NCBI GenBank assembly: GCA_900553895.1
Contig: USFB01000001.1
Coordinates: forward strand, 49,735 to 113,734
Reading direction: 5' to 3'
DNA: 64,000 nt
DNA from: an uncultured bacterium
GTDB lineage: Bacteria > Cyanobacteriota > Vampirovibrionia > Gastranaerophilales > Gastranaerophilaceae
Made by a program: the position numbers and the translations under genes. Under the pieces are notes generated by a model that was not told the DNA's origin, ran no database searches, and saw nothing but the letters and a program-made list of their open reading frames with translations. Below, one piece after another: positions 3,273 to 36,022 of this stretch (positions are counted from its first letter, which is position 1; each line of letters opens with the position of its first letter).

Positions 3273-3458
3273 TTAACTATAAATAGCATTTGTTTGCATG
3301 TGCATGTTTTTACGTGCATCATCAAAAATACCTGCAGGACTCCATTTTGTTTTATTATCTTCTTCATTCATCCTTGCTTTCTGCAAGTCTGCCCAAGTAG
3401 ACTGTGTTTTTGAAACATGACTTCTTGAACCATAATTTCCTGAAACATGCGGTGCCAT
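3273..3458 (-). CDS. Small hypothetical protein (61 aa), member of the shared-promoter group
   Basis: ORF preceded on the minus strand by AATTACTTTATATATACATAAG 37 nt upstream of the ATG. The same motif occurs at three other small ORFs. Confidence 0.4.
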   Translation of the reverse strand: MAPHVSGNYGSRSHVSKTQSTWADLQKARMNEEDNKTKWSPAGIFDDARKNMHMQTNAIYS

Positions 3459-3494
3459 ATTTATATCCTTTCTATTATATCTTCGTATTTATAA

Positions 3495-3516
3495 CTTATG
3501 TATATATAAAGTAATT
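3495..3516 (-). promoter_or_regulatory. Conserved promoter-like motif (A)ATACTTTATATATA[CT][AG]TAAG, copy 4
   Basis: The minus-strand sequence aattactttatatatacataag matches the motifs at 8265-8295, 35187-35210 and 35536-35565. Confidence 0.4.
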
Positions 3517-3614
3517 CAGAACAACATAATTTCACTTTTTATTAAAAGATTTACAAATCGTTACAAATAGTGTATCATTAGTATAAAGTTTGAATTTAAA
3601 TAAGAGGAAGTTTT

Positions 3615-4487
3615 ATGAGCAATATTGTAATTTATTCAACAAAACCAATGCCTGAGCTACAAGCTAAATTAATGGAAATAGATGAAGCGGAAGTTAGAGT
3701 TGTTTCTATTGATAAAATGAAAGATTACGCGGTTATCAATCCGTCTTTAATGATTGTAGAAAATATTGATTTGGCAAAAGATGCACTTATGACAAACAAA
3801 TTTCCATGCCCAATTTTATTTTTTGGACCAACAAGAAGAGATGTAACAGTTAGAGCAGAAGGCTTCGACTTTATTAAAGATCCAGCAAATACCGATGAAT
3901 TAATCGTTCGTGTCAATGCTTTATTAAGAATTAAGGCATTAAAAGATAAGTTAGAAAGAGTTTCTACAACTGATGACTTAACTGGTTTACATAATAGAAA
4001 ATATCTGCAAGAGCGTTTAGAAGAAGAAATTTCTCGTTCAAGAAGATATGGCACAAAATTATCTTGTATTTTATTCGATTTAGATTACTTCAAAGTTGTT
4101 AATGATATGTATGGATATGAATGGGGCGATATATTGCTAACTAAAATTGCGAATAAACTTAATGCAATGATTAGAAAAGAAGATATTTTAACTCGTTACG
4201 GTGATGAAGAATTTTTGCTTGTATTACCTAATACTTCAGAAGATAATGCGTTCTTATTCGGCGAAAGATTCAGAAGAGAAGTTGAAAAAATGGAATTTAT
4301 TCCGGCTGGTGAAGAAGAACCGCATAAAGTAACAATTTCAGGTGGAATTTCAACATACCCTTGTATGCCTGATGTTGAAGAGGATGCAAATACTATAATA
4401 AGATATGCTGAACATGCTTTATATAATGCTAAGCATAGAGGTAAGAATAAAATAATTCAATTCTCTCAGATGAATTTAGAAATGTAA
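3615..4487 (+). CDS. Pseudo-receiver + GGDEF-family domain protein (degenerate GDEEF motif)
   Basis: The N-terminal REC-like fold has Glu where the phospho-Asp is expected (LMIVENID). The C-terminal GGDEF fold carries RYGDEEF instead of RxGG(D/E)EF. Confidence 0.75.
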   Translation: MSNIVIYSTKPMPELQAKLMEIDEAEVRVVSIDKMKDYAVINPSLMIVENIDLAKDALMTNKFPCPILFFGPTRRDVTVRAEGFDFIKDPANTDELIVRVNALLRIKALKDKLERVSTTDDLTGLHNRKYLQERLEEEISRSRRYGTKLSCILFDLDYFKVVNDMYGYEWGDILLTKIANKLNAMIRKEDILTRYGDEEFLLVLPNTSEDNAFLFGERFRREVEKMEFIPAGEEEPHKVTISGGISTYPCMPDVEEDANTIIRYAEHALYNAKHRGKNKIIQFSQMNLEM

Positions 4488-4493
4488 TTAAAA

Positions 4494-4520
4494 AGAGCAC
4501 CTTATCGGGTGCCTTTTTAT
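4494..4520 (+). terminator. Rho-independent terminator
   Basis: Hairpin gcacc-ttatcg-ggtgc followed by ctttttatt. Confidence 0.6.
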
Positions 4521-4608
4521 TACAAAAATTAATCAAACTTAATACTTTTTTTCAAACTTTGGCATGTTTATAGTATTATAGAGAAAAAGTTGGAGGGATT
4601 ATTTTATA

Positions 4609-5424
4609 ATGTCAGTAGCATTAGAACAAAAACAAGGTTTAATCGCAGGTGATGGTCTTTTGCCTGTAAAAATGGCTCAATATGCTAAAGAAAATGGTTT
4701 TGACGTTGTTGCAATTTCTTTATCAAATGATAATTATGCACAACTTAAAAAATATTGCTCAAAAGTTTATTCTTTCTGTCCGGGAGAAGTTCAAAAAATA
4801 GAAGACACTCTTAAAGCGGAAGGTATTAAACAAATTACATTTTTAGGCAAAGTTAGTAAAACAATTTTGATTAAACGCCCTAAATTTGACGCAAGAGCAT
4901 TAGACTTTATCAAAAAAGCTATAAGATTAAACGATGATAAAGTAATGCTAATGATTATAGAAGAATTGGAAAAAATTGGTGTAACAATTTTAGACCAAAC
5001 TTTGTTTATCAAAAATTTAATGATTCCATCAGGAGTTTTGGGAAAAGTTCAACCAACTCCTGAACAAATTGAAGACGTAAATTATGGTTACTGGTTAGCA
5101 AAAGAAACAGGGAAATTAGATGTCGGTCAGTCTGTAATTATAAAAGATAAGATGGTTATGGCAGTTGAAGCAATCGAAGGCACAGATAAATGTATCAAAC
5201 GCGGCTGTAAAATTGCAAAAAGAAATTCAAGAGTTATAAAAGTTGCAAAACCTTCTCAAGACAAAAGATTTGATATTCCTGCAATAGGTTTAAGAACATT
5301 AAAAACAATGCACAAATATAAAGCAGACCTAATTGCCGTTGAAGCAGGTGAAACAATTATTGTAGATAGAGAAGAAGTTATTAAATACGCAAATAAGCAT
5401 AATATTGTTGTAATGGCTGTATAA
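4609..5424 (+). CDS. lpxI: UDP-2,3-diacylglucosamine pyrophosphatase LpxI (DUF1009)
   Basis: 271 aa with an LpxI-like N-terminus (GLIAGDGLLP). Sits immediately upstream of lpxB, as is typical. Confidence 0.65.
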   Translation: MSVALEQKQGLIAGDGLLPVKMAQYAKENGFDVVAISLSNDNYAQLKKYCSKVYSFCPGEVQKIEDTLKAEGIKQITFLGKVSKTILIKRPKFDARALDFIKKAIRLNDDKVMLMIIEELEKIGVTILDQTLFIKNLMIPSGVLGKVQPTPEQIEDVNYGYWLAKETGKLDVGQSVIIKDKMVMAVEAIEGTDKCIKRGCKIAKRNSRVIKVAKPSQDKRFDIPAIGLRTLKTMHKYKADLIAVEAGETIIVDREEVIKYANKHNIVVMAV

Positions 5425-5428
5425 TTTT

Positions 5429-6553: not shown

Positions 6554-6555
6554 AG

Positions 6556-6587
6556 AAAGAGCCGGACATTTGCCGGCTTTTAAATTT
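6556..6587 (+). terminator. Rho-independent terminator
   Basis: agccgg-acatttg-ccggct followed by a T-run. Confidence 0.6.
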
Positions 6588-6718
6588 CTACAACCTTTTT
6601 TCTAACCTTATATATTAATAAAGTTTTCTTTTGTAAAAAAATTGCTTTTTTATGTCGAAATGTAAAGTTAATTTATGTTATACTTTTTTGAGCAAATATA
6701 AATAGCAAAAGGAATATT

Positions 6719-8161: not shown

Positions 8162-8182
8162 TTTTTTAGCAAAGTTTATTAG

Positions 8183-8215
8183 ACGGTTTAGATTCTCTAA
8201 ACCGTCTTTTTTAGT
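8183..8215 (+). terminator. Rho-independent terminator
   Basis: agacggtttag-attctc-taaaccgtct followed by ttttttag. Confidence 0.6.
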
Positions 8216-8251
8216 TTTTAAATATTAAGTTTTGTAACAATAATAACTCTC

Positions 8252-8295
8252 TGTGAAATTGTCTATTTTTTAAATACTTTATATATATGTAAGAT
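8252..8295 (+). promoter_or_regulatory. Conserved promoter-like motif TGTGAAATT-N-ATTTTTTAAATACTTTATATATATGTAAGAT, copy 1
   Basis: About 44 nt nearly identical to 35522-35565. The core is shared with 35187-35210 and 3495-3516. It ends 25 nt before the ATG at 8320. Confidence 0.45.
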
Positions 8296-8319
8296 GAAAA
8301 ATAACAAGGAGCTTAAATC

Positions 8320-8616
8320 ATGTCAACTAATATTAACGCAAACGTTCTTAAAAACTTTATAGTAAAAACTATCGGTGCTGAAAAATTAACACAAGCTCAA
8401 GCACAAAGATATGATATTGATGCTAACAAATACACTGAAGCAAATACAGATGAAAATGCTTATCTTGATTTAGATGAAATTCTTGATGATAAGGATTTGT
8501 ACGAACAATTTGCAACAATGTATGTTGAAGAAAAAGATAAAGAGAATGAAGTTAATGCAGAGAAAGAGAAAGAAGACGCCGCTAAGGTACAAGATAAAGG
8601 CGAAAGTAAAGCTTAG
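8320..8616 (+). CDS. Small acidic hypothetical protein (98 aa)
   Basis: ORF with an RBS (caaggag) and a D/E/K-rich C-terminal half. Followed by a terminator. Confidence 0.5.
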   Translation: MSTNINANVLKNFIVKTIGAEKLTQAQAQRYDIDANKYTEANTDENAYLDLDEILDDKDLYEQFATMYVEEKDKENEVNAEKEKEDAAKVQDKGESKA

Positions 8617-8639: not shown

Positions 8640-8670
8640 GATAATTAAAACGGAGTTTATACTCCGTTTT
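8640..8670 (+). terminator. Rho-independent terminator
   Basis: aacggagt-ttat-actccgtt followed by ttttatttg. Confidence 0.6.
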
Positions 8671-8778: not shown

Positions 8779-10350
8779 ATGATGAGCAATTTACAATTTC
8801 AAAATGACCTCGAAAGGCTAATCGCCATTATGCCCCCAAAAGTCGTGTCTAATTTGTCGTGTGAAAAATTGGATGATGTTATCGAAATAGTTCTCGATAT
8901 CGGACGAGTTCCTGAAGTCCGACATGCAGGAGGCAAGATTGAAAAATTACAGTGTGATGTAGTTAATGATGAAGATATTAAGTTTATAACTTCTCACCTT
9001 CAAGAATTCACGCATGATAATCGTTCAGGTATCCCAGGAACTTTGCACCGTATCAGTGCAATAAGAAACAGACAAGGAAAAGTTGTTGGTCTGACTTGTC
9101 GTATTGGGCGTGTTGTAACAGGTACAATTGCTTGTATAAAAGATATTTGCACTCAAGGAAAGAGTATTTTATTCTTAGGTCCTCCGGGGGTTGGTAAAAC
9201 TACAAAACTTAGAGAAATTTCACGACTTGTAGCTGATGAACTCGGTAAACGTGTTGTCATTGTAGATACATCAAACGAAATCGCTGGTGATGGTGATGTT
9301 CCGCACCCTGCTGTCGGTTCTGCAAGGAGAATGCAAGTTGCTCAGCCAGAATTTCAAAAAGATATAATGATTGAGGCGGTCGAAAACCACACGCCTGAAG
9401 TTATTGTAGTCGATGAAATCGGTACTGAACCGGAAGCTCAAGCTGCCAGAACAATTGCAGAACGTGGTGTAATGCTTATTGCAACTGCTCACGGCAACTG
9501 TTTGGAAAGTTTAATCAAAAACCCTACTTTATCTGATTTAGTCGGCGGTATTCAATCCGTAACGTTGGGCGATGATGAAGCTAAACGTCGAGCATCACAA
9601 AAAACAGTTTTAGAAAGAGAAAAACAACCTACTTTTGATATTGTTATTGAGATTTTAGATAGAAATACGCTTGCAGTTTATAAAAACACATCAGAAGCGG
9701 TCGATTATATCTTAAGAGGTTGGCCGATTCGTCCTGAAATCAGAAAAGTTGAAGAACAACATGTTGAAACAATTTCTGCTCCTGAACCCGTTAAGCAGGA
9801 AATTCCTGAAACTCCTCGAGATAACAGCATGAATTTCTCGTTCTCACGTCAAAAATACGTTGAGCAGGCTAAACCGCTTAAAAAATTGTATTTGTACGCT
9901 GTATCAAGAACTATTGTTGAAAAAACAATTGAACGTTTGAATTTGAATGTCGAATTGACGCGTAACGTAGAAGACGCTGATATTGTAATCGCACACAAAA
10001 ATTTTGCAAAAGGCGGGGCAAAAATTTTGAATACTGCAAAAGAATATAGAGTTCAAATTTTCTATGTAAAAACAAACTCAATGGCTCAAATTCAAAAGGT
10101 TTTGAAGGATGCGCTTGATATTCAACCGGGTGATGTTGAGCCATTGCAAGGTTATAGCGATGATACAGAAAAGGCTTTGGATGAAGCACGTGCTGCAATT
10201 AAACAAATCGCAGACGGTGCTGATATTGCGGAACTCTCACCACAACCTTCTCAAATAAGAAAACTACAACATGAACTTGTTGATCAGTATAATTTAAAAA
10301 GCACATCTATAGGCGAAGGCGACAATAGACATTTAAGAATTCATAAATAA
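8779..10350 (+). CDS. P-loop AAA ATPase with C-terminal R3H-like nucleic-acid-binding region (Ycf45/SpoIIIAA-like)
   Basis: Walker A FLGPPGVGKTT and Walker B VIVVDEIG. The C-terminal segment resembles an R3H domain. Confidence 0.6.
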   Translation: MMSNLQFQNDLERLIAIMPPKVVSNLSCEKLDDVIEIVLDIGRVPEVRHAGGKIEKLQCDVVNDEDIKFITSHLQEFTHDNRSGIPGTLHRISAIRNRQGKVVGLTCRIGRVVTGTIACIKDICTQGKSILFLGPPGVGKTTKLREISRLVADELGKRVVIVDTSNEIAGDGDVPHPAVGSARRMQVAQPEFQKDIMIEAVENHTPEVIVVDEIGTEPEAQAARTIAERGVMLIATAHGNCLESLIKNPTLSDLVGGIQSVTLGDDEAKRRASQKTVLEREKQPTFDIVIEILDRNTLAVYKNTSEAVDYILRGWPIRPEIRKVEEQHVETISAPEPVKQEIPETPRDNSMNFSFSRQKYVEQAKPLKKLYLYAVSRTIVEKTIERLNLNVELTRNVEDADIVIAHKNFAKGGAKILNTAKEYRVQIFYVKTNSMAQIQKVLKDALDIQPGDVEPLQGYSDDTEKALDEARAAIKQIADGADIAELSPQPSQIRKLQHELVDQYNLKSTSIGEGDNRHLRIHK

Positions 10351-10401
10351 ATGTAGCAAAAAATATTTTTAGAGGTTTTGTAATAGCCAAAGGGAAAAAC
10401 T

Positions 10402-11709
10402 GTGTTAAAACTTAGTCAATTACAAAACCAAAAAACTTATACCCAACAAACATCATTCAAAGGGCAAAATTATATAGAATATATTGCAAAGCGACAGCTA
10501 GTTTTGAAGAATAAACATACTCCAAAGAAATATTGGACGCTTAATGACTTTAATATGAAGAAACTTGAAGGAATTCAAAGTGGGCTGAAAGTTTTAGGCA
10601 ATTTAACAATGACACAAATAAAAAGCATTACGGAGCGTGCCCTTGCCATAATTTTGCGTCGCGGATGTAACAATATGTGCGCACATTGTTATGCAGATGC
10701 AAGACCTGAAAGTTTTTATAAAAAAGAAAATTCAATATCAGAAATAAATATTGAAGATTTTAAAAATTTTTGTGACGACATAGTTGGTCTAAATAATAAA
10801 CTTGGATTTAATATTTTCAATAAAAAAAATAAATATGATTATCAAACATTATTTCTTGATGCAGATAGTTCAATGATTCAAGCTAAAGATAAAGATGGCA
10901 AAGAATATGATTATTTAGACCTTAGCAAAATGTTGCATGATAGTTGTAATAAAGAAGTTTTATTTGATACAGCCGGTTGGAATATTCAAGATAAAAAAAC
11001 TCAAAACAGAATAGATAAACTTGTGCAAAAATTCAACGATAATTATAATAAGTACAAATTTGTCCATTTTAATTTATCATTCAATCCATTCCATTCCTTG
11101 CACTACACTTCTATACAAAGAAAAAAAGAAGGTAAATACGATATTGCAGAAAAATTGGATGATATATACGCGACAAGAATGGCTAATACGATAAACACGC
11201 TATTACCTATATTTTTAAATCATCCTGACAATTTTTCTATTATTTCACGAAGTTTTGAAAATTTTGAAAATAAAAATACAGAAGGTTTTCAACAAATAGA
11301 TTTGGCAGAATTGTATGATAAAACATTGGATAAATTAAAAAATATCTTTTATGAAAAATTTATAGATGAATATTCTGAAAAAGAATTGGATAAAGAATTT
11401 GAAAATATAAAACAATATTTTCGTAAAAATAGCATGCAAACTGCAACAAGGATTGGTATTACCGGAAGATTAGCAAAAAGATTTGATTATAAAAATTTCA
11501 GAAAGACACTTGATGAAGAATTTCCTGATGCCAGTGATAAAGTTATATCCAACAATATGCCTGCCGGTTTAATAGATTTGAACGGGAAATTTTATATAAC
11601 TAATTATTTGGAAACATTTCCTACAAATATACAATTAAATTACACTAATAAAGATAAGCTGACTGCACCAATTAACCCTAATTTGCACGATCATACGGTC
11701 CAAATTTAA
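10402..11709 (+). CDS. Radical SAM domain protein
   Basis: CX3CX2C motif (CNNMCAHCY) about 90 residues from the N-terminus. 435 aa, GTG start. No other recognisable domain. Confidence 0.65.
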   Translation: MLKLSQLQNQKTYTQQTSFKGQNYIEYIAKRQLVLKNKHTPKKYWTLNDFNMKKLEGIQSGLKVLGNLTMTQIKSITERALAIILRRGCNNMCAHCYADARPESFYKKENSISEINIEDFKNFCDDIVGLNNKLGFNIFNKKNKYDYQTLFLDADSSMIQAKDKDGKEYDYLDLSKMLHDSCNKEVLFDTAGWNIQDKKTQNRIDKLVQKFNDNYNKYKFVHFNLSFNPFHSLHYTSIQRKKEGKYDIAEKLDDIYATRMANTINTLLPIFLNHPDNFSIISRSFENFENKNTEGFQQIDLAELYDKTLDKLKNIFYEKFIDEYSEKELDKEFENIKQYFRKNSMQTATRIGITGRLAKRFDYKNFRKTLDEEFPDASDKVISNNMPAGLIDLNGKFYITNYLETFPTNIQLNYTNKDKLTAPINPNLHDHTVQI

Positions 11710-11715
11710 GTTGTT

Positions 11716-24185: not shown

Positions 24186-24200
24186 AATAAAGAGAGCGAT

Positions 24201-25607
24201 ATGGAAAAAACTAACAAATACTATGGTGTAATAGAAGATTTAGTAAAACAAAACAGAAAATATCAAGGCTTAGAGCCAATTTTAGATGATATTATCGATG
24301 ATGTTTACTCTCATTCAGAAGTTATCATTAATTCAATCAACAATGATAGCGTTATTCAATCGTATTTAGCAAAAGTTGTTTCGACATCTGTCATTACTGT
24401 TCCTAAACGATTAGGATTTCAACCGGAAGTTCAACGGAAAACAGTTGACGCTCAACAGGTATTAGAAAATGTTGTTCATAAACAAGAAAAAGCTGTTAAT
24501 ACAGTGCTTGTTGATAAAATGATTAATAATATCGCATTTGATGATAAAGAAGAAGAACCATCACTAGAGGAAAGTTTATCTCTTGAAGAACTTGAAGTTT
24601 CAGAACTAGAAACTCCTGAAACAACTATTGAAACAGCTTCTGAAACGGTTAATGAAAATAAAGATTTACTGATTTCTAATGATGATAAATTGGAAATAGA
24701 AACACCTAATATTGATACACAAGATGAAATTTCGTTTTCTGACAATGAGTTAAACGTTCTTATTGGAGAAAACGACAATGAAATTTCAGACATTGACGCT
24801 CAAACTGAGATAGTAAATGAAACTACTGAATCAACTGAGCCTGAAACAATTAAAGAATCGGAACAAGTTTCTTTAGAACTAAATGATTTAGATGAAATTT
24901 CAGAAGAGGAAGAAACTCAACACGATAAAACAGACGAAATCCAAACTTCAGAAGAAGTTGACTCTATAGAATTAGAGCCCGTATTGGCTGATGATTCAAC
25001 ACTTGAAATATCAGATGAACCATTATTACAAAACGACGAAATAGAAACTCATGAAGAGGAAACATTAGAACTTCATCAAGATGACTCTACGAACTTTAAT
25101 TCTTTGGATATTGAAGATTTAAATCCCGTTGAAGAAGATTCTGATACGTTTGAAACTAAAGACTTAGAAATTCTAAATTCAGACGACACATCAGATGTCA
25201 CATTAGATATACAAGATGATGATAATATAGAGCAATTAGAAACTTCTACTGCTGATGATAGTCCTCTGGATGTGATCAGCAATAACGGTTTAAATCAAAT
25301 TGCCGATGTAATTACAACAACATTAGAATATCCGGGAAATACTTCTTCTGAAAATACAGATTTCAAGCCAACTGATTATTCAGTATTTAGCTATTCAACA
25401 GACAAATACAAGGATGATATTGACGCAGAAGAAATTGTTAATGAAATAAAAGATTTGGCATCAAAACATCCTGAATTGAATATAATTAATGTATATAATT
25501 TGAAATTCAAGGACAAACTTACAATTCCTCAAGTAGCATCTGAGCTTAATATGAGTGAAGATAATGTAATTGAAGCTTTGAATGAGTTGGTAGCTATTGT
25601 ACAATAA
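24201..25607 (+). CDS. Highly acidic protein with C-terminal helix-turn-helix-like segment
   Basis: 468 aa with a D/E/S/T-rich middle. The C-terminus KLTIPQVASELNMSEDNVIEALNELVAIV resembles a sigma region-4 / HTH. 15-nt gap from the upstream gene. Confidence 0.5.
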   Translation: MEKTNKYYGVIEDLVKQNRKYQGLEPILDDIIDDVYSHSEVIINSINNDSVIQSYLAKVVSTSVITVPKRLGFQPEVQRKTVDAQQVLENVVHKQEKAVNTVLVDKMINNIAFDDKEEEPSLEESLSLEELEVSELETPETTIETASETVNENKDLLISNDDKLEIETPNIDTQDEISFSDNELNVLIGENDNEISDIDAQTEIVNETTESTEPETIKESEQVSLELNDLDEISEEEETQHDKTDEIQTSEEVDSIELEPVLADDSTLEISDEPLLQNDEIETHEEETLELHQDDSTNFNSLDIEDLNPVEEDSDTFETKDLEILNSDDTSDVTLDIQDDDNIEQLETSTADDSPLDVISNNGLNQIADVITTTLEYPGNTSSENTDFKPTDYSVFSYSTDKYKDDIDAEEIVNEIKDLASKHPELNIINVYNLKFKDKLTIPQVASELNMSEDNVIEALNELVAIVQ

Positions 25608-25615
25608 GGAAGCTT

Positions 25616-28564
25616 ATGCAGTGTCCCAAATGTAAAAATGAAATAGAAGATAATTCTTTGAAATGCAAATTTTGCGGAACAAAGATTGCTTCTGTGTGCA
25701 AAGATTGTGGGACTATAAATCCGATTACAGCAAAAGAATGTTCTAATTGTCATAAGGTATTGCTTAAAATTTGTACAGAATGTGGTGCTGCAAATCTTCC
25801 GGAAGCGAAAGCTTGTAGAAAATGCAGAATGGAATTTGTTATCCCGCAAAAGAAATTCAATCCAAAACCAGAATACAGTGCAGAAATGAATTCTCAACAA
25901 AAGGTTAAAGCAAGGCTTTTGGATTCTATCAAAGATGCTGATAAAACTATTATTACTTTGAATGGTGAAAGCGGTATTGGTAAGGATTTAGTTTTAAGAT
26001 ATACGATAAATGAGCTTAAAAATGCTAAACTACTTTGGTTATGGGGAACTTGTACACAAGTGACTCAACTTTCTCCGTTTGGTTATTTTCAAGATTTATT
26101 GCTAACATTTTTCAATGTAAATAATTTTTGTCCTGATACATTACAACTCAAAAAAAATTCTGTTAAATTTTTCAAGCAGGATTTTCCGACACTTTCAAAT
26201 GCAGAAATTTTAGATTTGTTGAACTTTTTATATCCTGAAAATTTGGATAAATACGAGAATATTTATTTTAATAAAGCAAAAATGTTCAATATAATGAAAA
26301 AAGTTTTGCTAACAATTATTGAAAAAATTAAAGCCGTTTTTGTTATTGATGATTTTGAAAATATTGATGGCATGTCTTTTGATTTTCTAAAAGAAATTTT
26401 AAAAGATGATTATTTTTTAGAAAGATGCAAATTTATTTTAATTTCTAAAATCATAAAACCGGGCATGGGTTGTATAACGTCACCTAAACTTACGGAAGAA
26501 AATTATGTTGATTTAACGATTGCGCCATTTACAAAAAGTCAGGTAGAAATTTTAGTAAAACAATATAGTGACTTAGAAATCGGTGATGATTTTGTAAATT
26601 TGGCACTAAATATTTCAGGCGGAAATCCTTCTATTGTAGAACAAATGGTGCTTTTGTATAAAGATATCAGAAGAAACGGCTTAAAGCATATTACATATAA
26701 ATCTTTAGAAACAATTCTTGATGCAAGACTCGGTATTCTTAAACAAGAAGATTTGCCATCATACAGAATCCTTGTTGCAATGTCTGTTTTGGGTTCAAAG
26801 TTCTATCCTGCAATGCTTGAGCATTTTGATAATAATTCTGAAAAAGAATTTGAACGCATAATTGAAAATCTTGTTCAACGAGGATATATAAATCAAATTA
26901 ACAATCTTTCTTTTGAATTCAAGAGCAACGAAATTTGGAAAAATATTGTTTCTGTTGTTAAAAATGATGATTGTTTTTATGAAGTTTTGAATATTTTATA
27001 TGAAACTCTAAGTATTTATAAACAATCTTCAATCGCACTATTAGGCTATATCGTACAAAAACTTAATAATGATGACCAAGCTCTTACAGTTTGGACGCTT
27101 TTGATGAAACAAGCATCTTATATCGGCGATATCGGACTTTATATTATTACCCAAAAACAAGCATTGAAACTTGTTGAAGATAAACATGGCGCATTTTATC
27201 AGAAAATTAAAAAGAATATTTATACAAGAGTCGGTAAATTACTCGAACCAATCGACCACAAATCAGCTTTTGAATATTTACAAAATGCAGTAATGATGCT
27301 TGACGATAATGAAGAATTTGAACATATTGAGCTTTTGGGTTATTTAGCATCATCTTCGATGAAGAGCGGTAACTATTGGGGTGCAATTGAGTGCGCAGAC
27401 AGCGTTTTGAATAAAGTTCCAGAAACAATGGAGTTAGAGCGCACGCTTGTTAAATCGCGTCAAGTTCGTCCAATGCTAAAACTTGGTAATTATGGTCAAG
27501 TTATTAATCTTATTGACACTGAAATAATGCCTGTTTTTGAAAAATATTTGGCTAAAGGAAGAAATACTCAAATTATCACATTAAAAGAATTGTATTTAAC
27601 TTGGATAGGTGTTTATTTTGATTTTGCAGAAGCTTTGACATTCCAAGGCGATGGAAGAATGTTTGAGATTATCAAGTTGATTTTTGATATAATAGAACGC
27701 AATCAAATTAAAGAACCTGCAATATTATGCAAAGCTCATTTGGCTCTAGCTTTAGCAAATACGATAAAAGGTGATATTAAGACTTCCGAAAAAATTCTGG
27801 ATGATATTTTGAAAGAATATCCGCTTGATAGTATGGACTCGTTTATTGTTTCAAGATGGAATTTTGTTGATATTTCTAATAAATTTATAGCAAAAGATTA
27901 TGACAGTTTGTATACAGAGTTATTCAATGTTGTTGCTTATGCTAATAATGTAAATGACAGCTTTACAAAAAATATTCTAAAGACTCTACTTGCTAAGATG
28001 CTTACGGATAAAAACGAATCAAAAAAAGCGTTAGAGATTTTAGAAGAACAAGTTGCATATTTTGCTAAAGAAAAAGTCGCAACCGGCGTTTTGCTTTGCT
28101 GGTACTTGATAGCAGAAATCAAATTGGTTATAAGCGGAACACAGTTTGCGCTTGATATTGCAAATAAAGCTTTAGACATTGCACAAGGCCCTAATATTAA
28201 TAACTACTATTTTATAGCCTTGTTTAATAAACTTATTGGCGAAATTTATATGGCTAAACAGGATTTTGACTCTGCTAAGGTTTATTTAGAAAAATCAATT
28301 TTTGTTGCAAAACAATTTAACTTGCTTACAATTTTGGTTAAAGATTATATTCAGTACGCTAAATTTTATCAAGAATTGGCATTACCAAAATCTACATTGA
28401 GAGCAAATTATATCAAACAATCGTTGAAAATGTTCCAAATGGCTAAAAATGTAAGTATTGTAGCTGAACATCCGCATTTACAGAAACTTATAAAAGAAGA
28501 ATTGTCCATTTTGACTTCGTTCTGTAAATTAAATGGTATAATACTTAAAAAAGGTACAAAATAA
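25616..28564 (+). CDS. Triple zinc-ribbon + AAA_16-like P-loop NTPase + TPR-like helical repeats (STAND-type signalling NTPase)
   Basis: N-terminal CPKC..CKFC, CKDC..CSNC and CTEC..CRKC ribbons. Walker A LNGESGIGKD and Walker B VFVIDDFENID. The C-terminal ~600 aa is alpha-helical and TPR-like. 8-nt gap from the upstream gene. Confidence 0.65.
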   Translation: MQCPKCKNEIEDNSLKCKFCGTKIASVCKDCGTINPITAKECSNCHKVLLKICTECGAANLPEAKACRKCRMEFVIPQKKFNPKPEYSAEMNSQQKVKARLLDSIKDADKTIITLNGESGIGKDLVLRYTINELKNAKLLWLWGTCTQVTQLSPFGYFQDLLLTFFNVNNFCPDTLQLKKNSVKFFKQDFPTLSNAEILDLLNFLYPENLDKYENIYFNKAKMFNIMKKVLLTIIEKIKAVFVIDDFENIDGMSFDFLKEILKDDYFLERCKFILISKIIKPGMGCITSPKLTEENYVDLTIAPFTKSQVEILVKQYSDLEIGDDFVNLALNISGGNPSIVEQMVLLYKDIRRNGLKHITYKSLETILDARLGILKQEDLPSYRILVAMSVLGSKFYPAMLEHFDNNSEKEFERIIENLVQRGYINQINNLSFEFKSNEIWKNIVSVVKNDDCFYEVLNILYETLSIYKQSSIALLGYIVQKLNNDDQALTVWTLLMKQASYIGDIGLYIITQKQALKLVEDKHGAFYQKIKKNIYTRVGKLLEPIDHKSAFEYLQNAVMMLDDNEEFEHIELLGYLASSSMKSGNYWGAIECADSVLNKVPETMELERTLVKSRQVRPMLKLGNYGQVINLIDTEIMPVFEKYLAKGRNTQIITLKELYLTWIGVYFDFAEALTFQGDGRMFEIIKLIFDIIERNQIKEPAILCKAHLALALANTIKGDIKTSEKILDDILKEYPLDSMDSFIVSRWNFVDISNKFIAKDYDSLYTELFNVVAYANNVNDSFTKNILKTLLAKMLTDKNESKKALEILEEQVAYFAKEKVATGVLLCWYLIAEIKLVISGTQFALDIANKALDIAQGPNINNYYFIALFNKLIGEIYMAKQDFDSAKVYLEKSIFVAKQFNLLTILVKDYIQYAKFYQELALPKSTLRANYIKQSLKMFQMAKNVSIVAEHPHLQKLIKEELSILTSFCKLNGIILKKGTK

Positions 28565-28565
28565 A

Positions 28566-28603
28566 AAAGAGTTGATAAACTGAACAGAAACCAACTCTTT
28601 TTT
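28566..28603. terminator. Bidirectional terminator between the convergent STAND NTPase and SNF2 genes
   Basis: aagagttg...caactctt followed by ttttattt. Confidence 0.6.
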
Positions 28604-28622
28604 ATTTATTAAAAATACTCGA

Positions 28623-31600
28623 TTAACCAGCTGTCAAAGAGAAAATATCGTAAATTTCTTGGTCTGAAAGCTCTGTAATAATCTTTTCGCCTTCGTAAAC
28701 CGCCAAATCCGCAAGTTCCTTTTTAGACTTCAACATCTCATCAATTTTTTCTTCAAAAGTTCCGAGTGTAATAAGTCTATGCACCATAACGTTCTTTTCT
28801 TGACCGATACGATACGTTCTATCTGTCGCTTGATCTTCTACCGCAGGGTTCCACCACAAGTCATAGTGGATAACGTTTGTTGCGCTTGTTAAGTTCAAAC
28901 CTGTACCACCTGCTTTAAGTGAAAGTATCATAATTTTTCTATCGTCATTCGTTTGGAAATCTTCAATCAACTTTTCACGCTGAGGAACTGTTAATGAACC
29001 GTGGAAAAATGAAGGTTCTGAACCACATTCTTCAAGTAGCATTTTAGTTAATAAATCGCCCATTTCTTTATATTGAGTGAAAATAAGAGTTTTTTCATTA
29101 TTATCCAAAATACTTTGCACCAAAGAAACGCATTTTTCTGCCTTACCTGAAAGTTCTTTAGACGTTTCACCGCTTTTTAAGAATTGATAAGGGTGGTTAC
29201 AAATTTGTTTAAGCGCAGTTATAAGCTTGAAAATATTACCGCGTCTGTTGACACCTGTAAATCCGCTGATTTTTTCCATCATTTCGTTAAGCGTTTTTTC
29301 GTATAAAATAGCTTGAGATTTAGCTAAATAGCAATAATCATTCATTACCATCTTGTCAGGCAAATCCGAAATTACGTGTTTATCCGTTTTCAAACGTCTT
29401 AAAACAAATGGAGAAACTGAAAGTTTAAGTTTAGATGCTCTTGTTTTTTCTTTAAACCTTTCAATAGGCACTGCATAACTCTTTTGGAATTCCTTCAAAG
29501 AGCCTAAATAACCTTTGTTAATAAAGTCAAAAATACTCCAAAGCTCTGTAAGACGGTTTTCTACCGGAGTACCTGTCATTGCAATCTTGATATCTGATTT
29601 TAGTGATTTAATCGCCAAAGTTTGCGCTGTGTCAGGGTTCTTGATGTTTTGAGCTTCGTCTACAACAATCATGCCCCAAGAATTTTTCTTCATTTCTTCA
29701 ACATCTATTCTCATGATTGCGTAAGTTGTAAGAATAACGTCGCATTTTAAATCAAGCTTTCTATCCATTCCATGATAAGTCGCAGTTTTTAGAGAAGGTG
29801 CAAACAGTTGCAATTCTTTCATCCAGTTTCCCATCAAAGTCGTTGGACAAATTACCAGCACGGGATTTTTGATTTTCTTTTCTTCTTTCAGTTTAAGAAT
29901 TAAACTGATAACCTGAATAGTTTTACCTAACCCCATATCGTCAGCCATACAGCAACCAAAACCTTTTGAAACGTTTGTCCAAAGCCATTTAAGACCGGTC
30001 ATTTGGTATGCTCTCAAATCGCCCTTCAAACCTTCAGGCTGAGTAACTTCAACAGGCTTTGCAAAATCCTTGATAACATTTGCATAAGCTTCATCATAAT
30101 TGAAGTCATAATTTTGAAGTTGACCTGACATAGAAGCATGAATAAGCTCAAGTCTTGTCATTTTCTTGTGGTTTGCGTTTTGAATTTGTTCAACAAGCTT
30201 TAAACCTTCAGCTTTATCAACCAAAATGTATTTGCCGTTGTATTGAATTAGACCGTTGCTTTCGTTTACAAGTTTGTTAAATTCTTCCAATGAAATCTTT
30301 TCATCACCTAATGAAATTTCATAAGTGAAATCAAGAATATCGTCTAATGAAATTGCGCTACTTGAAACAGTGTTAAAGATATTCATTAAATCATCAGAGC
30401 GCGAAGCTTTAACTTTCGCGTTAATTGAAGCACGAGGAATAATAATATTAGTCAATTCTTCCGGCAAGATTACGTCAATTTGTGCTTTTTGTAAGTAATA
30501 TGCCGTTTGAGCAATAATTTTATAAACTTCATTTAAGTTCAAAGTCAGAGCAAGCTTGTCTTCATCTTCAAAAAGAGTTTCAAGTTCCGGCATGTATCTA
30601 ACTGCATAATTAAGTTGTTTTTCAATGATTTTAGATATATCAGCCGTATCTAAGCCCCAAATCTCATCCTCGTGATAAAGTTCATCAAGAAGAATTGTTT
30701 CATCAGTTTTTCTGTTTTTGATATGAATCTTTAACTCAAATTTATCATCACTAACTTTATTAACCTTGAAGAATGGGATTAAGTCATATTTACCTAAATA
30801 CAATTCATCGAACCATTGCGCAAAGTTTTCGGCAAGGTCTTTACCCTTCATTAAGCATCTTTGTTCTAAATCCTTAATCATGTAATGACCAGATTTAATG
30901 TCTTTGAAACGGTAAGCCTTAATTCCTAAGAATTTGTAAACAAGGTAGTTTAAATATTCTCTGACAAATTTTTCTACAAAATCTTTTGGTTTATCACCTT
31001 TAATAAATAAGTTTTCAGGTAGATTGTTTTCTAGCTCGTTAATAATTTTTGCAGATTCTTTATTAGAAATAATCGGCTCATAAACAATTCTGAAAGAACC
31101 GCCTGATGCGCCTTCTTTTCTATGTACTGTCGGTATAAAGTACAATTTTTCAATAAGCTTCATAACAAAGTGTGTAAGCTTGTTGAAATATGCAAAAGTT
31201 TGAGTTAGTGAAGAGAAATCAACAACTTCACCAAATCCGCCAAAATAGTCTAAAACTAAATCTAACGGCATAATATAACCGATTTGACCGTTGACTTCTT
31301 TAGACGTAAATCTAAACATTGAACCTTTAGATTTCAGGTAAAATTGAAAATTGTTTGTAGGTGTTACAAAGAACGACAATTTAGGATTCGTCGCCGTTCC
31401 ATCGTTTATAAGTAAGAAATCAGTATTTCTTACAGGTGAATTCGGAGATAGAAAAATCCCCTCAAACTCATCCTCTACAAGCTGATAAATCAAACTTAAT
31501 GTGTAACGGAAATCTTTGTTCTTGAAACCGTTTGGGTTTTCACTCAAATTGTAAAAGAACTCATCTACATTGTTTTTCTTTAGTGATAAATCTATATTTA

Positions 31601-31628
31601 GTGGTTTTACGTTTTTTTCTTCAGTCAT
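28623..31628 (-). CDS. SNF2-family helicase with bacterial SNF2-associated N-terminal domain
   Basis: 1001 aa. SNF2_N (LRAYQMTGLKWL, DEAQNIKN) plus Helicase_C (QATDRTYRIGQ). The ~540 aa N-terminal extension is typical of bacterial HepA/RapA-like SNF2 proteins. Confidence 0.85.
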   Translation of the reverse strand: MTEEKNVKPLNIDLSLKKNNVDEFFYNLSENPNGFKNKDFRYTLSLIYQLVEDEFEGIFLSPNSPVRNTDFLLINDGTATNPKLSFFVTPTNNFQFYLKSKGSMFRFTSKEVNGQIGYIMPLDLVLDYFGGFGEVVDFSSLTQTFAYFNKLTHFVMKLIEKLYFIPTVHRKEGASGGSFRIVYEPIISNKESAKIINELENNLPENLFIKGDKPKDFVEKFVREYLNYLVYKFLGIKAYRFKDIKSGHYMIKDLEQRCLMKGKDLAENFAQWFDELYLGKYDLIPFFKVNKVSDDKFELKIHIKNRKTDETILLDELYHEDEIWGLDTADISKIIEKQLNYAVRYMPELETLFEDEDKLALTLNLNEVYKIIAQTAYYLQKAQIDVILPEELTNIIIPRASINAKVKASRSDDLMNIFNTVSSSAISLDDILDFTYEISLGDEKISLEEFNKLVNESNGLIQYNGKYILVDKAEGLKLVEQIQNANHKKMTRLELIHASMSGQLQNYDFNYDEAYANVIKDFAKPVEVTQPEGLKGDLRAYQMTGLKWLWTNVSKGFGCCMADDMGLGKTIQVISLILKLKEEKKIKNPVLVICPTTLMGNWMKELQLFAPSLKTATYHGMDRKLDLKCDVILTTYAIMRIDVEEMKKNSWGMIVVDEAQNIKNPDTAQTLAIKSLKSDIKIAMTGTPVENRLTELWSIFDFINKGYLGSLKEFQKSYAVPIERFKEKTRASKLKLSVSPFVLRRLKTDKHVISDLPDKMVMNDYCYLAKSQAILYEKTLNEMMEKISGFTGVNRRGNIFKLITALKQICNHPYQFLKSGETSKELSGKAEKCVSLVQSILDNNEKTLIFTQYKEMGDLLTKMLLEECGSEPSFFHGSLTVPQREKLIEDFQTNDDRKIMILSLKAGGTGLNLTSATNVIHYDLWWNPAVEDQATDRTYRIGQEKNVMVHRLITLGTFEEKIDEMLKSKKELADLAVYEGEKIITELSDQEIYDIFSLTAG

Positions 31629-31660
31629 TGTCTATATTTCTCTTTTTATTTTTTTAATAC

Positions 31661-31695
31661 GGTGGGAACCGCTCCGCTATTCCCACCCTACGCCT
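31661..31695. repeat. GC-rich repeat element copy C (ggtgggaa-ccgctccgcta-ttcccacc)
   Basis: 8-bp inverted repeat containing CCCACC, immediately followed by CCCTACGCC. Compare copy A, CCCCACCCTAACC. Confidence 0.4.
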
Positions 31696-31711
31696 TACTT
31701 TTTATTGTTCT

Positions 31712-31960
31712 TTATTGTTTACAGAATATTCCTACATAAGCAAAAAATATTATCAATCCGATTATAGCAATAGGTAATAATACAATTGTTACTATTATAA
31801 ACCAAGAGCAGGTTTTGTACATAAATTCTAAAAATTTGTGGTCATTAAATTTTGTAGCTATATGTTTTGCAATTATTAAAATCAAGCCAATTATGGCAAA
31901 CCATGTTGATATTCGAAGTTCTTGTAATGAATGTAAATATAAGTATTCAAAATTGTTCAC
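31712..31960 (-). CDS. Small membrane protein (82 aa, 2 TM)
   Basis: Hydrophobic ORF. No family call. Confidence 0.35.
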   Translation of the reverse strand: MNNFEYLYLHSLQELRISTWFAIIGLILIIAKHIATKFNDHKFLEFMYKTCSWFIIVTIVLLPIAIIGLIIFFAYVGIFCKQ

Positions 31961-32058
31961 GTTTTTCTCACCATGCAGGTAATAAAAAGTTTAGTTGTTT
32001 AGGAGTTAAGAAAAATTTAAAACGTCTTCTCAACTCCTAAACTTCTAAACTACTCAAC

Positions 32059-33597: not shown

Positions 33598-33834
33598 ATC
33601 AAAATTTCTCCTCTATAAAGTCTTTTTAACCTAATAAGTTTATGACAAAAGCAGGGGAATGTAAAGAGGGAAATGTATTCACTAAGCGAACTAATAGAAT
33701 GTGATTAGAAAAATTTTAGCTATATAAATAAGACCTACAACTTTTTAATAATATTTGCCGATATTTTTTATAATTGATGGTTGAATAGCTAAGCTTTAAA
33801 TCACAATTTATAGTGGTAACAAGGTGGTACTACT

Positions 33835-34737
33835 ATGAAAAAATTTCTTGCTACATTCCTAATATTTGCGTATATATTCGGTTTTACTGGATTTCGTGTT
33901 GAAGCTACAGCTCAGAAACCTGATAGTTTGATTACAAAAATTGAAAATGATATTTACGGTTTTGACTATTCAAATGACACAGCGCAAAATCGAATTTCAC
34001 GTCTTGAAAAAACTGTTTATGGAAAATCTTCAAACGGTGACATTAATAAAAGAATAAAAAAGCTTTCCGGTGATATTTCAGCAGACGTAATAGGTTTGGA
34101 AATCGAGCCGACAGAAGACAGTTTTAAAGAAGATGAAGCAATTGCGGATAGTTCGGTAAATTATCCTATTGTTGATGAAATAGAACAAAAAATATTTAAT
34201 CAAACATATAAGAATCGTGATTTTCATTCACGTATAGTCGCAATTGAGCGTAAAATATTCGGCAAAATATATGATGTAGATGATTATTCTACAAGAATGG
34301 ATAGAATAAAAGCCAAAATAATGCCGGAAACAATTGCTAAAAATTCCTATAATGGTGATTTTAGAAGCCAAAGTTATTATGATAATGATACTTTAACATC
34401 AAATGATTTGTCAGGCTTGAGTGGCAATCGTTTTAAAATGCCATTTGGACAAAAGAATTACACAAGACCTTACGCAAACTACGGCGATATGACCGGCGGT
34501 TCTGCAATGCTTCCATCTAATCCTAATTTAAATGATGAATTGGCACAGCTTGAATACGAAACATTTGGAACAGAATTTTCAAATGAAGATACAGCTTCAC
34601 GTATTAAAAGACTAAACAGTGTAAGTAAAGCTAAAAAATCCGCTTCAAAATATGATTCAAACAAATTCTCACAGCGCATGTCAACAGCCATGGAGATTGG
34701 AGCAATGATATTAATGATACTTGCAATGGTGTTATAA
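33835..34737 (+). CDS. Secreted/membrane-anchored hypothetical protein with internal RI..LEK..GK repeats
   Basis: Signal peptide, four or more degenerate ~35-aa repeats, and a hydrophobic C-terminus. Confidence 0.5.
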   Translation: MKKFLATFLIFAYIFGFTGFRVEATAQKPDSLITKIENDIYGFDYSNDTAQNRISRLEKTVYGKSSNGDINKRIKKLSGDISADVIGLEIEPTEDSFKEDEAIADSSVNYPIVDEIEQKIFNQTYKNRDFHSRIVAIERKIFGKIYDVDDYSTRMDRIKAKIMPETIAKNSYNGDFRSQSYYDNDTLTSNDLSGLSGNRFKMPFGQKNYTRPYANYGDMTGGSAMLPSNPNLNDELAQLEYETFGTEFSNEDTASRIKRLNSVSKAKKSASKYDSNKFSQRMSTAMEIGAMILMILAMVL

Positions 34738-34748
34738 AACTACAACAC

Positions 34749-34982
34749 TTATCCTTTGAAATAATCACAAATTAGTTTTTCTTTCTTAGAAAAAACATTT
34801 TTAAATTTTTCTGCTATCGGATTTTTTTCCAACTCTTCTAATTCTTTTTTCATAATAGCTTTTTCTAATATCAAAGTATTATAAAGCTGATTGCATATAT
34901 CAGATGATGTTTGGTGTAAATGTAATTTTTTTATTTGCAATTCTTTTAATTGAATTTGTTTTTTTAATTGATTCTTGTTCAC
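34749..34982 (-). CDS. Small coiled-coil hypothetical protein (77 aa)
   Basis: GTG start with RBS aaagagg. Confidence 0.3.
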   Translation of the reverse strand: MNKNQLKKQIQLKELQIKKLHLHQTSSDICNQLYNTLILEKAIMKKELEELEKNPIAEKFKNVFSKKEKLICDYFKG

Positions 34983-35186
34983 AGAAAACCTCTTTGTATA
35001 TAGATTATAACTTATAGATAAAATTTACAATCAATCTTTTAGAGGATTTAAAACTTATAAAATTATTATGACATACCAACGTTCAATATTTTAGCAACAT
35101 TCAATTAGAATTGAATATTTAAAATTTACAAATTCGCTTTACATTCCTTAACAATTAAAAACAAAAAAGGCAATTTTTTGAAACTG

Positions 35187-35210
35187 AAATACTTTATATA
35201 TACATAAGAA
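35187..35210 (+). promoter_or_regulatory. Conserved promoter-like motif copy 2 (aaatactttatatatacataagaa)
   Basis: 20 nt upstream of the ATG at 35231. Confidence 0.4.
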
Positions 35211-35230
35211 GATTTTATAAGGAAGAAATA

Positions 35231-35434
35231 ATGAACGAAAAAGAATTAAACGCTACAATGTCAGTTATCGCAGACCCAATCAAAAATGTTTATAAATTAG
35301 AAACAAGAAAAGACGTTGAAGAAATCCAAAGAATTTGTAGAATTTTCGCTATTTCTGAAAGACAAGCAAACAAACACAAAATGTTGTCAATCAAAAATTT
35401 AGCAACATTTAGACTTGTTTTGAGTAATAATTAA
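35231..35434 (+). CDS. Small hypothetical protein (67 aa)
   Basis: ORF downstream of the conserved motif. RBS aaggaag. Confidence 0.35.
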   Translation: MNEKELNATMSVIADPIKNVYKLETRKDVEEIQRICRIFAISERQANKHKMLSIKNLATFRLVLSNN

Positions 35435-35521
35435 GCTGGAATATGAATAAGTAGTATCGTCATTGGGCTATTTCCCAATGGCGATATTTTTATGTAAAGT
35501 TTTGTAAAGAATTAATGCTAT

Positions 35522-35565
35522 TGTGAAATTTAGTTATTTTTAAATACTTTATATATATGTAAGAT
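35522..35565 (+). promoter_or_regulatory. Conserved promoter-like motif copy 3 (tgtgaaatt...atttttaaatactttatatatatgtaagat)
   Basis: Near-identical to 8252-8295. It ends 19 nt before the ATG at 35585. Confidence 0.45.
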
Positions 35566-35584
35566 TTAAAAAAGGTATAAGAAG

Positions 35585-36022
35585 ATGGCAAACACAGCAG
35601 CTTTATTAGGAAACTTATTAAATAAGAATGCAGACTATAACTATTATGCTATGCAACAAATATATTGGAACAATATGTATGAAGCAAATAGCGCAAAACT
35701 TAGCAAACAAACTAAGTATGAAGAAAAGTGGGAAAGTGCATTTGATGATGCACAAAACGTTGATAAACAATGTAAAATCGGAAACACAACTTGGAAAGAA
35801 AAAGATCAAGTTTTGAGTGATGCACAAGCAGATGCTTATGCACACGCGAAAGTAAAAGAATACAATGAAAGTTTATCACTAGAATTAGCAGATTTAGACT
35901 TAGAATACGATACAATGAGAAATATGTATGATACTTTGATGCAAGAATTGCAATCTCAAAAAGAATCTGCAAAATCAGTTACTTCTACTGCAGCTCAAGA
36001 TACAGGTTTATTACAATCATAA
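35585..36022 (+). CDS. Hypothetical protein (145 aa)
   Basis: ORF with an RBS, downstream of the conserved motif. Confidence 0.5.
   Translation: MANTAALLGNLLNKNADYNYYAMQQIYWNNMYEANSAKLSKQTKYEEKWESAFDDAQNVDKQCKIGNTTWKEKDQVLSDAQADAYAHAKVKEYNESLSLELADLDLEYDTMRNMYDTLMQELQSQKESAKSVTSTAAQDTGLLQS

Follow-up and report, generated by a model that had tools for sequence, protein, structure and literature searches.

A probable promoter motif, near-invariant across Gastranaerophilales, upstream of small orphan genes and small RNAs

A stretch of 64,000 nucleotides (nt) of the Gastranaerophilaceae contig USFB01000001.1 (assembly GCA_900553895.1; positions 49,735-113,734, forward strand), hereafter the window, carries four copies of a 19-nt motif, each just 5' of a small open reading frame (ORF). 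The window is part of a Gastranaerophilales (Melainabacteria) chromosome, the Gastranaerophilales being non-photosynthetic, uncultured gut relatives of the cyanobacteria; its G+C content is 29-37%. It contains core chromosomal genes (lpxI-lpxB, rpmB, nusA-rimP, lysS, ispD, trigger factor, gpmI, folD) together with acrAB-tolC-like genes, secE-nusG-rplK-rplA with tRNA-Trp, and neuB. The motif copies and the features that accompany them are given below in window positions; protein lengths are in amino acids (aa) and stems in base pairs (bp), and negative offsets are counted from the T of the TAC in the core, which is position 0.

3550-3565, minus strand: site 1 upstream element TGTAACGATTTGTAAA, forward orientation, at -52 to -37
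3528-3533, minus strand: site 1 -35-like block GAAATT, class a, at -20 to -15
3495-3513, minus strand: site 1 core TACTTTATATATACATAAG, exact 19-mer, predicted transcription start (+1) at 3499 (A)
3273-3458, minus strand: gene of a 61-aa orphan protein with 7 close homologues and no family
3212-3242, minus strand: intrinsic terminator of the site 1 unit, 14-bp stem and T-run
6607-6625, minus strand: site 5, a degenerate core AACTTTATTAATATATAAG with 3 mismatches to the 19-mer; GCAATT at 6640-6645 with correct spacing, upstream element displaced
6560-6578, minus strand: site 5 terminator, about 30 nt 3' of the core, which also serves lpxB on the opposite strand
8223-8238, plus strand: site 2 upstream element TATTAAGTTTTGTAAC, forward
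8255-8260, plus strand: site 2 -35-like block GAAATT, class a
8275-8293, plus strand: site 2 core TACTTTATATATATGTAAG, predicted +1 at 8289 (G)
8320-8616, plus strand: gene of a 98-aa acidic orphan protein, in the conserved synteny lpxB, major facilitator superfamily gene, rpmB, 98-aa gene
8647-8670, plus strand: site 2 unit terminator; the unit is insulated by the rpmB terminator on its 5' side (8181-8207)
35138-35153, plus strand: site 3 upstream element TTTACATTCCTTAACA, reverse orientation
35163-35179, plus strand: site 3 class b block AAAAAAG-GCAATT-TTTT, with GCAATT at 35170-35175
35190-35208, plus strand: site 3 core TACTTTATATATACATAAG, predicted +1 at 35204 (A)
35231-35434, plus strand: gene of a 67-aa orphan protein, 58 cluster representatives
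35453-35488, plus strand: site 3 unit terminator, 15-bp stem
35493-35508, plus strand: site 4 upstream element TGTAAAGTTTTGTAAA, forward
35525-35530, plus strand: site 4 -35-like block GAAATT, class a
35545-35563, plus strand: site 4 core TACTTTATATATATGTAAG, predicted +1 at 35559 (G)
35585-36022, plus strand: gene of a 145-aa orphan protein, modelled by AlphaFold2 (AF2) as a long hairpin of helices whose tip is a beta-hairpin
36032-36046, plus strand: possible short hairpin GAGGG-gttca-CCCTC between the 145-aa gene and convergent folD, seen by eye and not called by the terminator scan

The first-pass annotation of this stretch had pointed to a promoter-like motif shared by these four small ORFs, and the observation is correct and much stronger than that annotation knew. 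The 19-mer core TACTTTATATATAYRTAAG is exact at all four sites and nowhere else in the window, with 0 occurrences expected. The longer 21-mer ATACTTTATATATAYRTAAGA matches without mismatch at 8274-8294(+), 35189-35209(+) and 35544-35564(+) and with two mismatches at 3494-3514(-), and 100 dinucleotide shuffles of the window gave no match to it (0 expected). Motif and start codon, estimated at first to lie 19-37 nt apart, are separated by 35, 25, 21 and 20 nt at the four sites. The two copies described as near-identical over about 44 nt (8252-8295 and 35522-35565) agree at 39 of 44 positions by our own count, their mismatches being confined to the spacer that runs from GTGAAATT to AAATAC. Alignment of the four upstream regions reveals two further common features: GTGAAATT or GGCAATTTT 14 nt 5' of TAC and, further up, an element resembling TGTAAAGTTTTGTAAA.

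The small genes of the window are monocistronic and form transcription units of their own. The gene on the 5' side ends in an intrinsic terminator (8181-8207; 35453-35488), and terminators of the small genes themselves lie at 3212-3242(-), 8647-8670 and 35453-35488. Conservation of their homologues indicates that all four ORFs are real conserved genes; the 98-aa protein, for example, is identical in 204 collection blocks, and contigs that encode the identical protein are of human gut metagenome origin. None of the four proteins belongs to a Pfam or NCBIfam family.

The distribution of the motif was examined by an exact match of the 19-mer against one genome per species for 185,579 species. Among the matches listed there are at least 118 loci in about 106 species-level assemblies, as judged by accession prefix, and nearly all of these assemblies bear the label Gastranaerophilales, Melainabacteria, 'Cyanobacteria bacterium UBA...' or 'Vampirovibrio sp.'. 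The motif thus belongs to a whole uncultured order of the gut and is no peculiarity of this genome. Four of these matches carry other labels (Muribaculaceae twice, Gammaproteobacteria and Clostridium), and because their flanking architecture is the same as in Gastranaerophilales, these genomes are probably mis-binned. The motif matches nothing in Rfam, Pfam or NCBIfam, and in the literature searched no paper mentions its sequence or Gastranaerophilales promoters, nor did we find anything published on the control of transcription in this order.

A logo built from 114 instances anchored on the core resolves three modules: an upstream element, a G[C/A]AATT block and the core itself, which reads AWA-TACTTTATATATA-YR-TAAG (also written AWA-TACTTTAT-ATATA-YR-TAAG, where YR is a pyrimidine-purine step). 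The G[C/A]AATT block occupies -20 to -15, with A at -18 in 113 of the 114, and not one insertion or deletion separates it from the core. An A is conserved at -3 and at -1, the spacers between the blocks are not conserved, and 3' of the core there is moderate conservation in the form TAAG-AGATAAATAA, the consensus 3' of the YR step being TAAGAGATAA. An early suggestion that the upstream block resembles a CRP half-site does not survive this comparison, as G[C/A]AATT is the only part conserved, the T and G of TGTGA (T at -22) are not, and a TCACA partner, as in the inverted repeat TGTGA-N6-TCACA of CRP/FNR-family sites, is absent. Some 30 specified bases that are near-invariant across a whole order are unusual for a bacterial promoter.

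Because the scan was keyed on the 19-mer, the invariance of this sequence is partly circular; independent evidence comes from the flanking blocks and from four orthologues of the 145-aa gene that were fetched by protein alone (63-70% identity). In these the core is kept at 19 of 19 or 18 of 19 positions, the variant being TACTTTTTATATATGTAAG, and the spacing of the blocks is identical while the spacers are unrelated. Likewise, G[AC]AATT-N14-TAC occurs 152 times in 0.9 Mb, with the full core in 100 cases and recognisable degenerate copies in about 9 more; variants of the core include TACTTTTTATATA. These comparisons also bear on whether the motif is a recently duplicated or mobile promoter cassette without shared regulation, as had been offered at the outset and as the 39/44 identity of the two window copies and the occurrence of the motif with a phage moron would suggest. 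Between species whose proteins are 63-75% identical, the motif stays with its genes in conserved synteny and the spacers are unrelated, and in orthologues down to 37% protein identity the blocks persist and the spacers are randomised; over the approximately 106 species it is functional blocks that are conserved, not a contiguous stretch. The cassette explanation is thus effectively refuted, and on the same grounds, unconserved spacers and a syntenic location across species, we rejected a mobile repeat.

The upstream element, kTwAA-N4-TkTAAm at -52 to -37, consists of two GTAA/TTAA half-sites 10 bp apart; a score of 14-16 out of 16 is reached by 100 of 119 instances, compared with 1 of 119 shuffles. 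Both orientations, forward and reverse, are found at the one position, and together with the -35-like block the element defines two promoter classes. Class a has GAAATT and an upstream element that is always forward (n=43); class b has an A-tract, GCAATT and a T-tract, with the upstream element forward in 34 instances and reverse in 33. The class is kept within gene families, whereas the orientation of the upstream element and the TG or CA state of the YR step flip within them. Over 119 instances this step is TG in 80, CA in 35 and TA or CG in 4.

Placement of the motif across genomes is far from random. Open frames of 120 codons or more make up 83% of the DNA but contain only 6 of the 126 instances; the other 120 are intergenic. 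An ATG-initiated ORF follows within 200 nt in 102 of the 126, at a median distance of 27 nt; among ORFs within 70 nt of the motif the median length is 81 aa, and the remaining instances lead into small RNAs (sRNAs) ended by a terminator or run off contig ends. The genes fall into lineage-specific families, of which the largest encode proteins of about 94 aa (25 instances, 616 homologues), about 55 aa (15 instances) and 145 aa (13 instances, 371 homologues), with smaller ones of 67 aa (6 instances), 98 aa (3 instances) and others. The main families have no match in Pfam or NCBIfam, with the exception of a 62-aa ribbon-helix-helix (RHH_1) protein in three species, and a rough count puts 4 of the 118 listed loci near flagellar genes, which is no enrichment. 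The AF2 model of the 145-aa protein is confident (predicted local distance difference test score, pLDDT, 91.7), but Foldseek finds for it generic hairpins only (Vipp1/PspA, prefoldin, colicin; all E>0.1), the model of the 94-aa family is unusable (pLDDT 51), and a PDB sequence search returned insignificant coiled-coil matches only. We note that public gene calls for three members of the 94-aa family (P0186, P0224 and P0231) start too far 5' and translate the motif (e.g. ...YTLYIQEE...); the N-termini are mis-annotated because the promoter is conserved there.

About 16 instances have no ORF downstream, and there the motif is followed by 50-200 nt of G-poor sequence and then an intrinsic terminator, the organization of an sRNA gene. 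One family is CA-rich; its members have ACACACUAACCU and CACACGAG(G)AAU in common, contain a small hairpin, and end in terminators with compensatory changes in the stem. A second group has C-rich tracts, CCUUCC or UCCCUUCCUAA, which are anti-Shine-Dalgarno-like; on this sequence feature its members may be translational repressors acting at ribosome-binding sites. Members of both are listed here under the numbers (L) of the fetched loci.

CA-rich sRNAs: L057 538-652(+); L068 5928-6073(-); L080 1331-1465(+); L085 7851-7958(-); L090 5383-5528(-); L104 5925-6072(-); L116 6099-6237(+)
C-rich sRNAs: L009 4321-4406(+); L058 2377-2458(+); L074 6610-6680(+); L024 6129-6266(+); L076 3978-4135(+); and L040, L050, L114 and L123

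Rfam recognizes only the tRNA-Trp in the window, nothing in 18 sRNA-bearing loci, and gives chance-level matches around sites 3 and 4. The complement of the CA-rich seed, AGGTTAGTGTGT, lies just 5' of an AGGAG Shine-Dalgarno sequence in L018 (~1659), L061 (~4766) and L113 (~2839), exact in L061 and L113 and with one mismatch in L018, within a conserved intergenic region that in L018 is that of trpS/lptB. GU-rich tracts stand beside the ribosome-binding sites of two genes, one for a flagellin and one for a 96-aa protein (L009 7470-7490; L019 ~996-1020). Both kinds of site may be targets of the sRNAs, or sponges for them. Site 5 of the window would yield an RNA of about 55 nt with AAGGUUAG and AAGGUUGUAG, antisense to the 3' end of lpxB and its terminator, and AAGGUUAG is complementary to a stretch, CUAACCUU, that includes the CA-rich seed.

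Phages of this lineage carry the motif as well. The exact core is present in 11 IMG/VR viral contigs, L125-L134 among them, with the full class b architecture in nine, and all nine class b copies lie 5' of one gene of about 95 aa (MLFTTE...NRFGNNFIA). In L131 this gene (4658-4990(+)) is opposite in strand to the phage genes, among them an SU10-like portal gene (9548-11335(-)), an arrangement that marks it as a moron-like gene apparently using the host promoter.

Taken together, the motif is very probably a DNA-level promoter of the small genes and sRNAs downstream, in accord with its first description as promoter-like: it is intergenic, oriented towards the downstream gene and bracketed by terminators, its upstream geometry is fixed across more than 100 species, and across these it marks small genes such as would form a co-regulated set. 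It behaves as a promoter and not as a translational or structural RNA element because its distance to the upstream blocks is fixed and that to the start codons is variable, and because one motif drives both mRNAs and sRNAs. An RNA element is nonetheless conceivable if transcription starts further upstream, with TTGTAA or TTAACA of the upstream element as -35 and G[C/A]AATT as -10, 16-17 nt apart, and with the 19-mer acting in the 5' leader as the site of an RNA-binding protein or RNase. The spacing TTGTAA/TTAACA-N16-17-G[C/A]AATT, read from the logo, is indeed sigma-70-like, and mRNAs and sRNAs would both carry the motif like a common 5' tag. Nevertheless, class b GCAATT lacks the -11 A at position 2 of the hexamer, the upstream element is equally far from the -35 box of sigma-28 promoters, where a -35 role is impossible, the distance to the start codon ranges from 20 to more than 46 nt, the TG/CA alternation reflects a DNA-strand symmetry with no rationale in RNA, and Rfam has no match; we consider a leader element improbable.

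The character of the promoter is clarified by the other promoters of these genomes. The tRNA promoters in the fetched loci are canonical (TTGACA-N17-(TG)nTATAcT), and therefore the primary sigma has ordinary specificity and the motif is something else; we note that the tRNA upstream regions of L008, L069, L097 and L120 share CTTGAyTTGATATACT, with a TTGACA-like -35 and a TGnTATACT -10. In at least 11 loci the upstream element stands apart from the motif, 5' of textbook sigma-28 promoters, CTAAAG-N14-GCCGATAT, at a fixed offset, and relative to it the -35 and -10 boxes of these promoters occupy exactly the positions of G[C/A]AATT and TACTTTAT. Flagellin genes have a third pair of boxes, TGTTAA-N14-GTGGAATA (TGTTAA/C variant), which resembles SigB/SigF-type promoters, and the flagellin copy in L103 and the matching site in L021 follow an upstream element in the same register. 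A few sigma-70-like promoters have the upstream element too.

Sigma-28 promoters with the upstream element: L034 517; L048 1559; L037 5178; L028 3154; L050 3655; L058 2472; L094 (-)5843; L095 4091
Flagellin-type promoters: L103 1968-2100(-); L021 670-745(+); L009 7290-7310(+)

Several of the sigma-28 promoters drive large orphan proteins that start MG(M/L)xA(S/G)QARLL(S/T)(L/I)T(A/S)R, and those scanned match nothing in Pfam or NCBIfam. A group 3 sigma gene adjoins the L103 flagellin.

With this common register in mind, our preferred reading, which we favour by somewhat more than even chances, is that a dedicated alternative sigma factor with group 3-like geometry reads the promoter, aided by whatever occupies the upstream element. 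RNA polymerase carrying a sigma-28-like alternative sigma would bind G[C/A]AATT at about -34 to -29 and TACTTTAT at about -14 to -7, both now counted from the start site, and would initiate at the purine of the YR step (window 3499(-), 8289(+), 35204(+) and 35559(+)). In sigma-28 geometry the 8-nt -10 box ends at -7, which would place +1 on that purine; the step is TG or CA in 115 of 119 instances, and the predicted start agrees with the preference of bacterial start sites for a pyrimidine at -1 and a purine at +1. The transcripts would be small RNAs and short monocistronic mRNAs with leaders of 25-50 nt, all of them closed by intrinsic terminators of their own. The upstream element, some 58 bp 5' of the start site, is probably the site of an activator or UP-like, because it would act regardless of orientation and is common to other promoter types. 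We discarded the ends of short contigs as a guide to the start site, the contigs breaking inside the motif as a genomic repeat, which is an assembly effect.

With promoters of sigma-28 (FliA/SigD, group 3; TAAA(G)-N15-GCCGATAA) the motif shares two rigidly spaced blocks, at about 15 nt with no variation in 114 instances and in the register of the sigma-28 boxes, a long 8-nt -10 element, and the definition of a regulon of short transcription units. The sequences, however, are unrelated (TAAAG vs G[C/A]AATT; GCCGATAT vs TACTTTAT), conservation in the motif continues through the discriminator and +1 to +5, and it precedes genes of orphan small proteins and sRNAs in place of recognisable flagellar ones; membership in the sigma-28/FliA class (TAAA + GCCGATAA) was rejected since G[C/A]AATT and TACTTTAT stand in its place. 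The streptococcal cin-box of ComX/SigH-type regulons, TACGAATA, is an 8-bp box starting with TAC after a T-rich tract, read by a dedicated alternative sigma at a discrete gene set, and the class b T-tract 5' of TACTTTAT may resemble it; the motif differs in box sequence, in its separate -35-like block and in having no competence genes downstream. Promoters of extracytoplasmic function (ECF) sigmas have a -35 with AAC and a -10 with CGT, 16-17 nt apart; here the -35-like block ends in AATT, not AAC, and the -10 region has no CGT, and this class was rejected as well.

A different polymerase can also be imagined, as the core is long and contiguous, some 19-22 bp spanning the start with YRTAAGAGA, followed from the YR step by TAAGAGATAA, and (pro)phages of the lineage use it. 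Single-subunit RNA polymerases of the T7 class read such promoters, those of plant mitochondria having CRTAAGAGA and those of yeast mitochondria ATATAAGTA, and the YRTAAGAGA core resembles plant and yeast mitochondrial and plastid nuclear-encoded polymerase promoters; common to both sides are a contiguous core of about 20 bp over the start and an AT-rich box followed by a YRTAAGAGA-like sequence. In contrast to these, the motif has an additional upstream block at fixed spacing and shares the upstream element with other promoters, features that fit a sigma-type architecture. As a weak test, tblastn over 0.95 Mb of sampled loci matched no T7-like RNA polymerase, nor was there one among the 10 phage-locus proteins scanned. 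A phage-type enzyme appears very improbable.

The housekeeping sigma requires closer attention. With WATACT or TACTTT as a weak -10 it could read the promoter, TTATATATAYRTAAG (and perhaps G[C/A]AATT) then being the site of a global repressor or activator with control over the whole set. The tRNA promoters of the lineage have TATACT as their -10 and WATACT is embedded at -2 to +3 of the motif in an AT-rich -10 region, conservation across the discriminator and early transcribed region is typical of operators, and the RHH DNA-binding protein is itself motif-driven in three species. Against this, no TTGACA-like hexamer lies 16-18 nt 5' of WATACT, an A-tract being found there instead, the spacing from G[C/A]AATT to TAC is invariant and in a register common to sigma-28 promoters, and the 19-mer has by eye no clear dyad or direct-repeat symmetry. 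Housekeeping sigma-70 promoters (TTGACA-N17-TGnTATACT) differ from the motif in its much longer, near-invariant conservation. A sigma-70 consensus scan (TTGACA/TATAAT, 16-18 nt spacer, at least 9 of 12) calls no site pointing into the four small genes, and we rejected ordinary sigma-70 membership, as the motif has no TTGACA at the right spacing and no extended -10 TG. A housekeeping promoter under a global regulator is, on this balance, unlikely, and the least unlikely of the alternatives.

Several considerations count against a dedicated sigma reading a dedicated promoter. We infer promoter activity and the start site from the DNA, the 19-mer's conservation is partly circular in an exact-match scan, and conservation exceeds the usual sigma contacts in covering the discriminator, +1 to +5 and, more weakly, positions to about +15; this extension could reflect a promoter-overlapping operator or a 5'-RNA element. 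The resemblance of WATACT to the lineage's housekeeping -10 (TATACT) means that the primary sigma is possibly involved. The one candidate for the cognate sigma that was examined has a different promoter. The lineage does encode FliA-like and other group 3 sigmas; the candidate is a divergent RpoD/RpoS-like (group-2-like) sigma of 294 aa, encoded less than 8 kb from the motif in four loci, which falls below every NCBIfam cut-off and is altered in regions 2.4 and 4.2 (WWIKQAMFKAI, VTKECIRQTE).

Divergent sigma of about 294 aa: L054 338-1219(-); L083 1-831(-); L112 1-666(-); L068 7462-7998(+); L146-L154

Three of its upstream regions looked motif-like, but nine further orthologues show a different promoter, so that autoregulation through the motif was rejected; its own conserved promoter comprises a reverse upstream element, CTTGAA-N17-TATAyT and tandem AGTATATA boxes. 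The dedicated sigma or regulator first proposed for these genes is still the best reading, as a deduction from sequence, and the idea of a small-protein regulon holds for the small proteins and was incomplete: it overlooked the upstream element and the existence of two classes, as well as the sRNA members and the taxonomic setting.

Elsewhere in the window, three large genes adjoin one another at 22083-31628, encoding proteins of 700, 468 and 982 aa. The 700-aa and 468-aa proteins match no Pfam family and the 982-aa protein has a double zinc ribbon and an AAA_16/STAND-like ATPase; a convergent SNF2/DUF3670 helicase gene adjoins (28623-31628(-)). This group may be a defence or signalling island.

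The promoter type is not described in Rfam or the literature searched, and the kind of system, an alternative-promoter regulon, is a known one; none of the regulon's products is recognisable. At its most far-reaching, and in our view as a tentative and rather doubtful proposition, the motif would represent a new transcription specificity, of a sigma or other dedicated factor, with a near-invariant promoter of about 40 bp through which dozens of lineage-specific small proteins, along with the C-rich, anti-Shine-Dalgarno-like and the CA-rich sRNAs, are switched on as one programme and which phages have copied for their moron genes. If true, this specificity would lead to a combined transcriptional and post-transcriptional control of state in the Gastranaerophilales, which are common in human and animal guts and known almost solely from metagenome-recovered genomes. 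The motif provides a sequence handle for the whole regulon, which by extrapolation comprises some tens of units per genome, turns the hunt for its sigma or regulator into a well-posed problem, and is a natural strong-promoter candidate for genetic tools. It also points to real and probably highly expressed small proteins and sRNAs that annotation pipelines have missed or mis-started.

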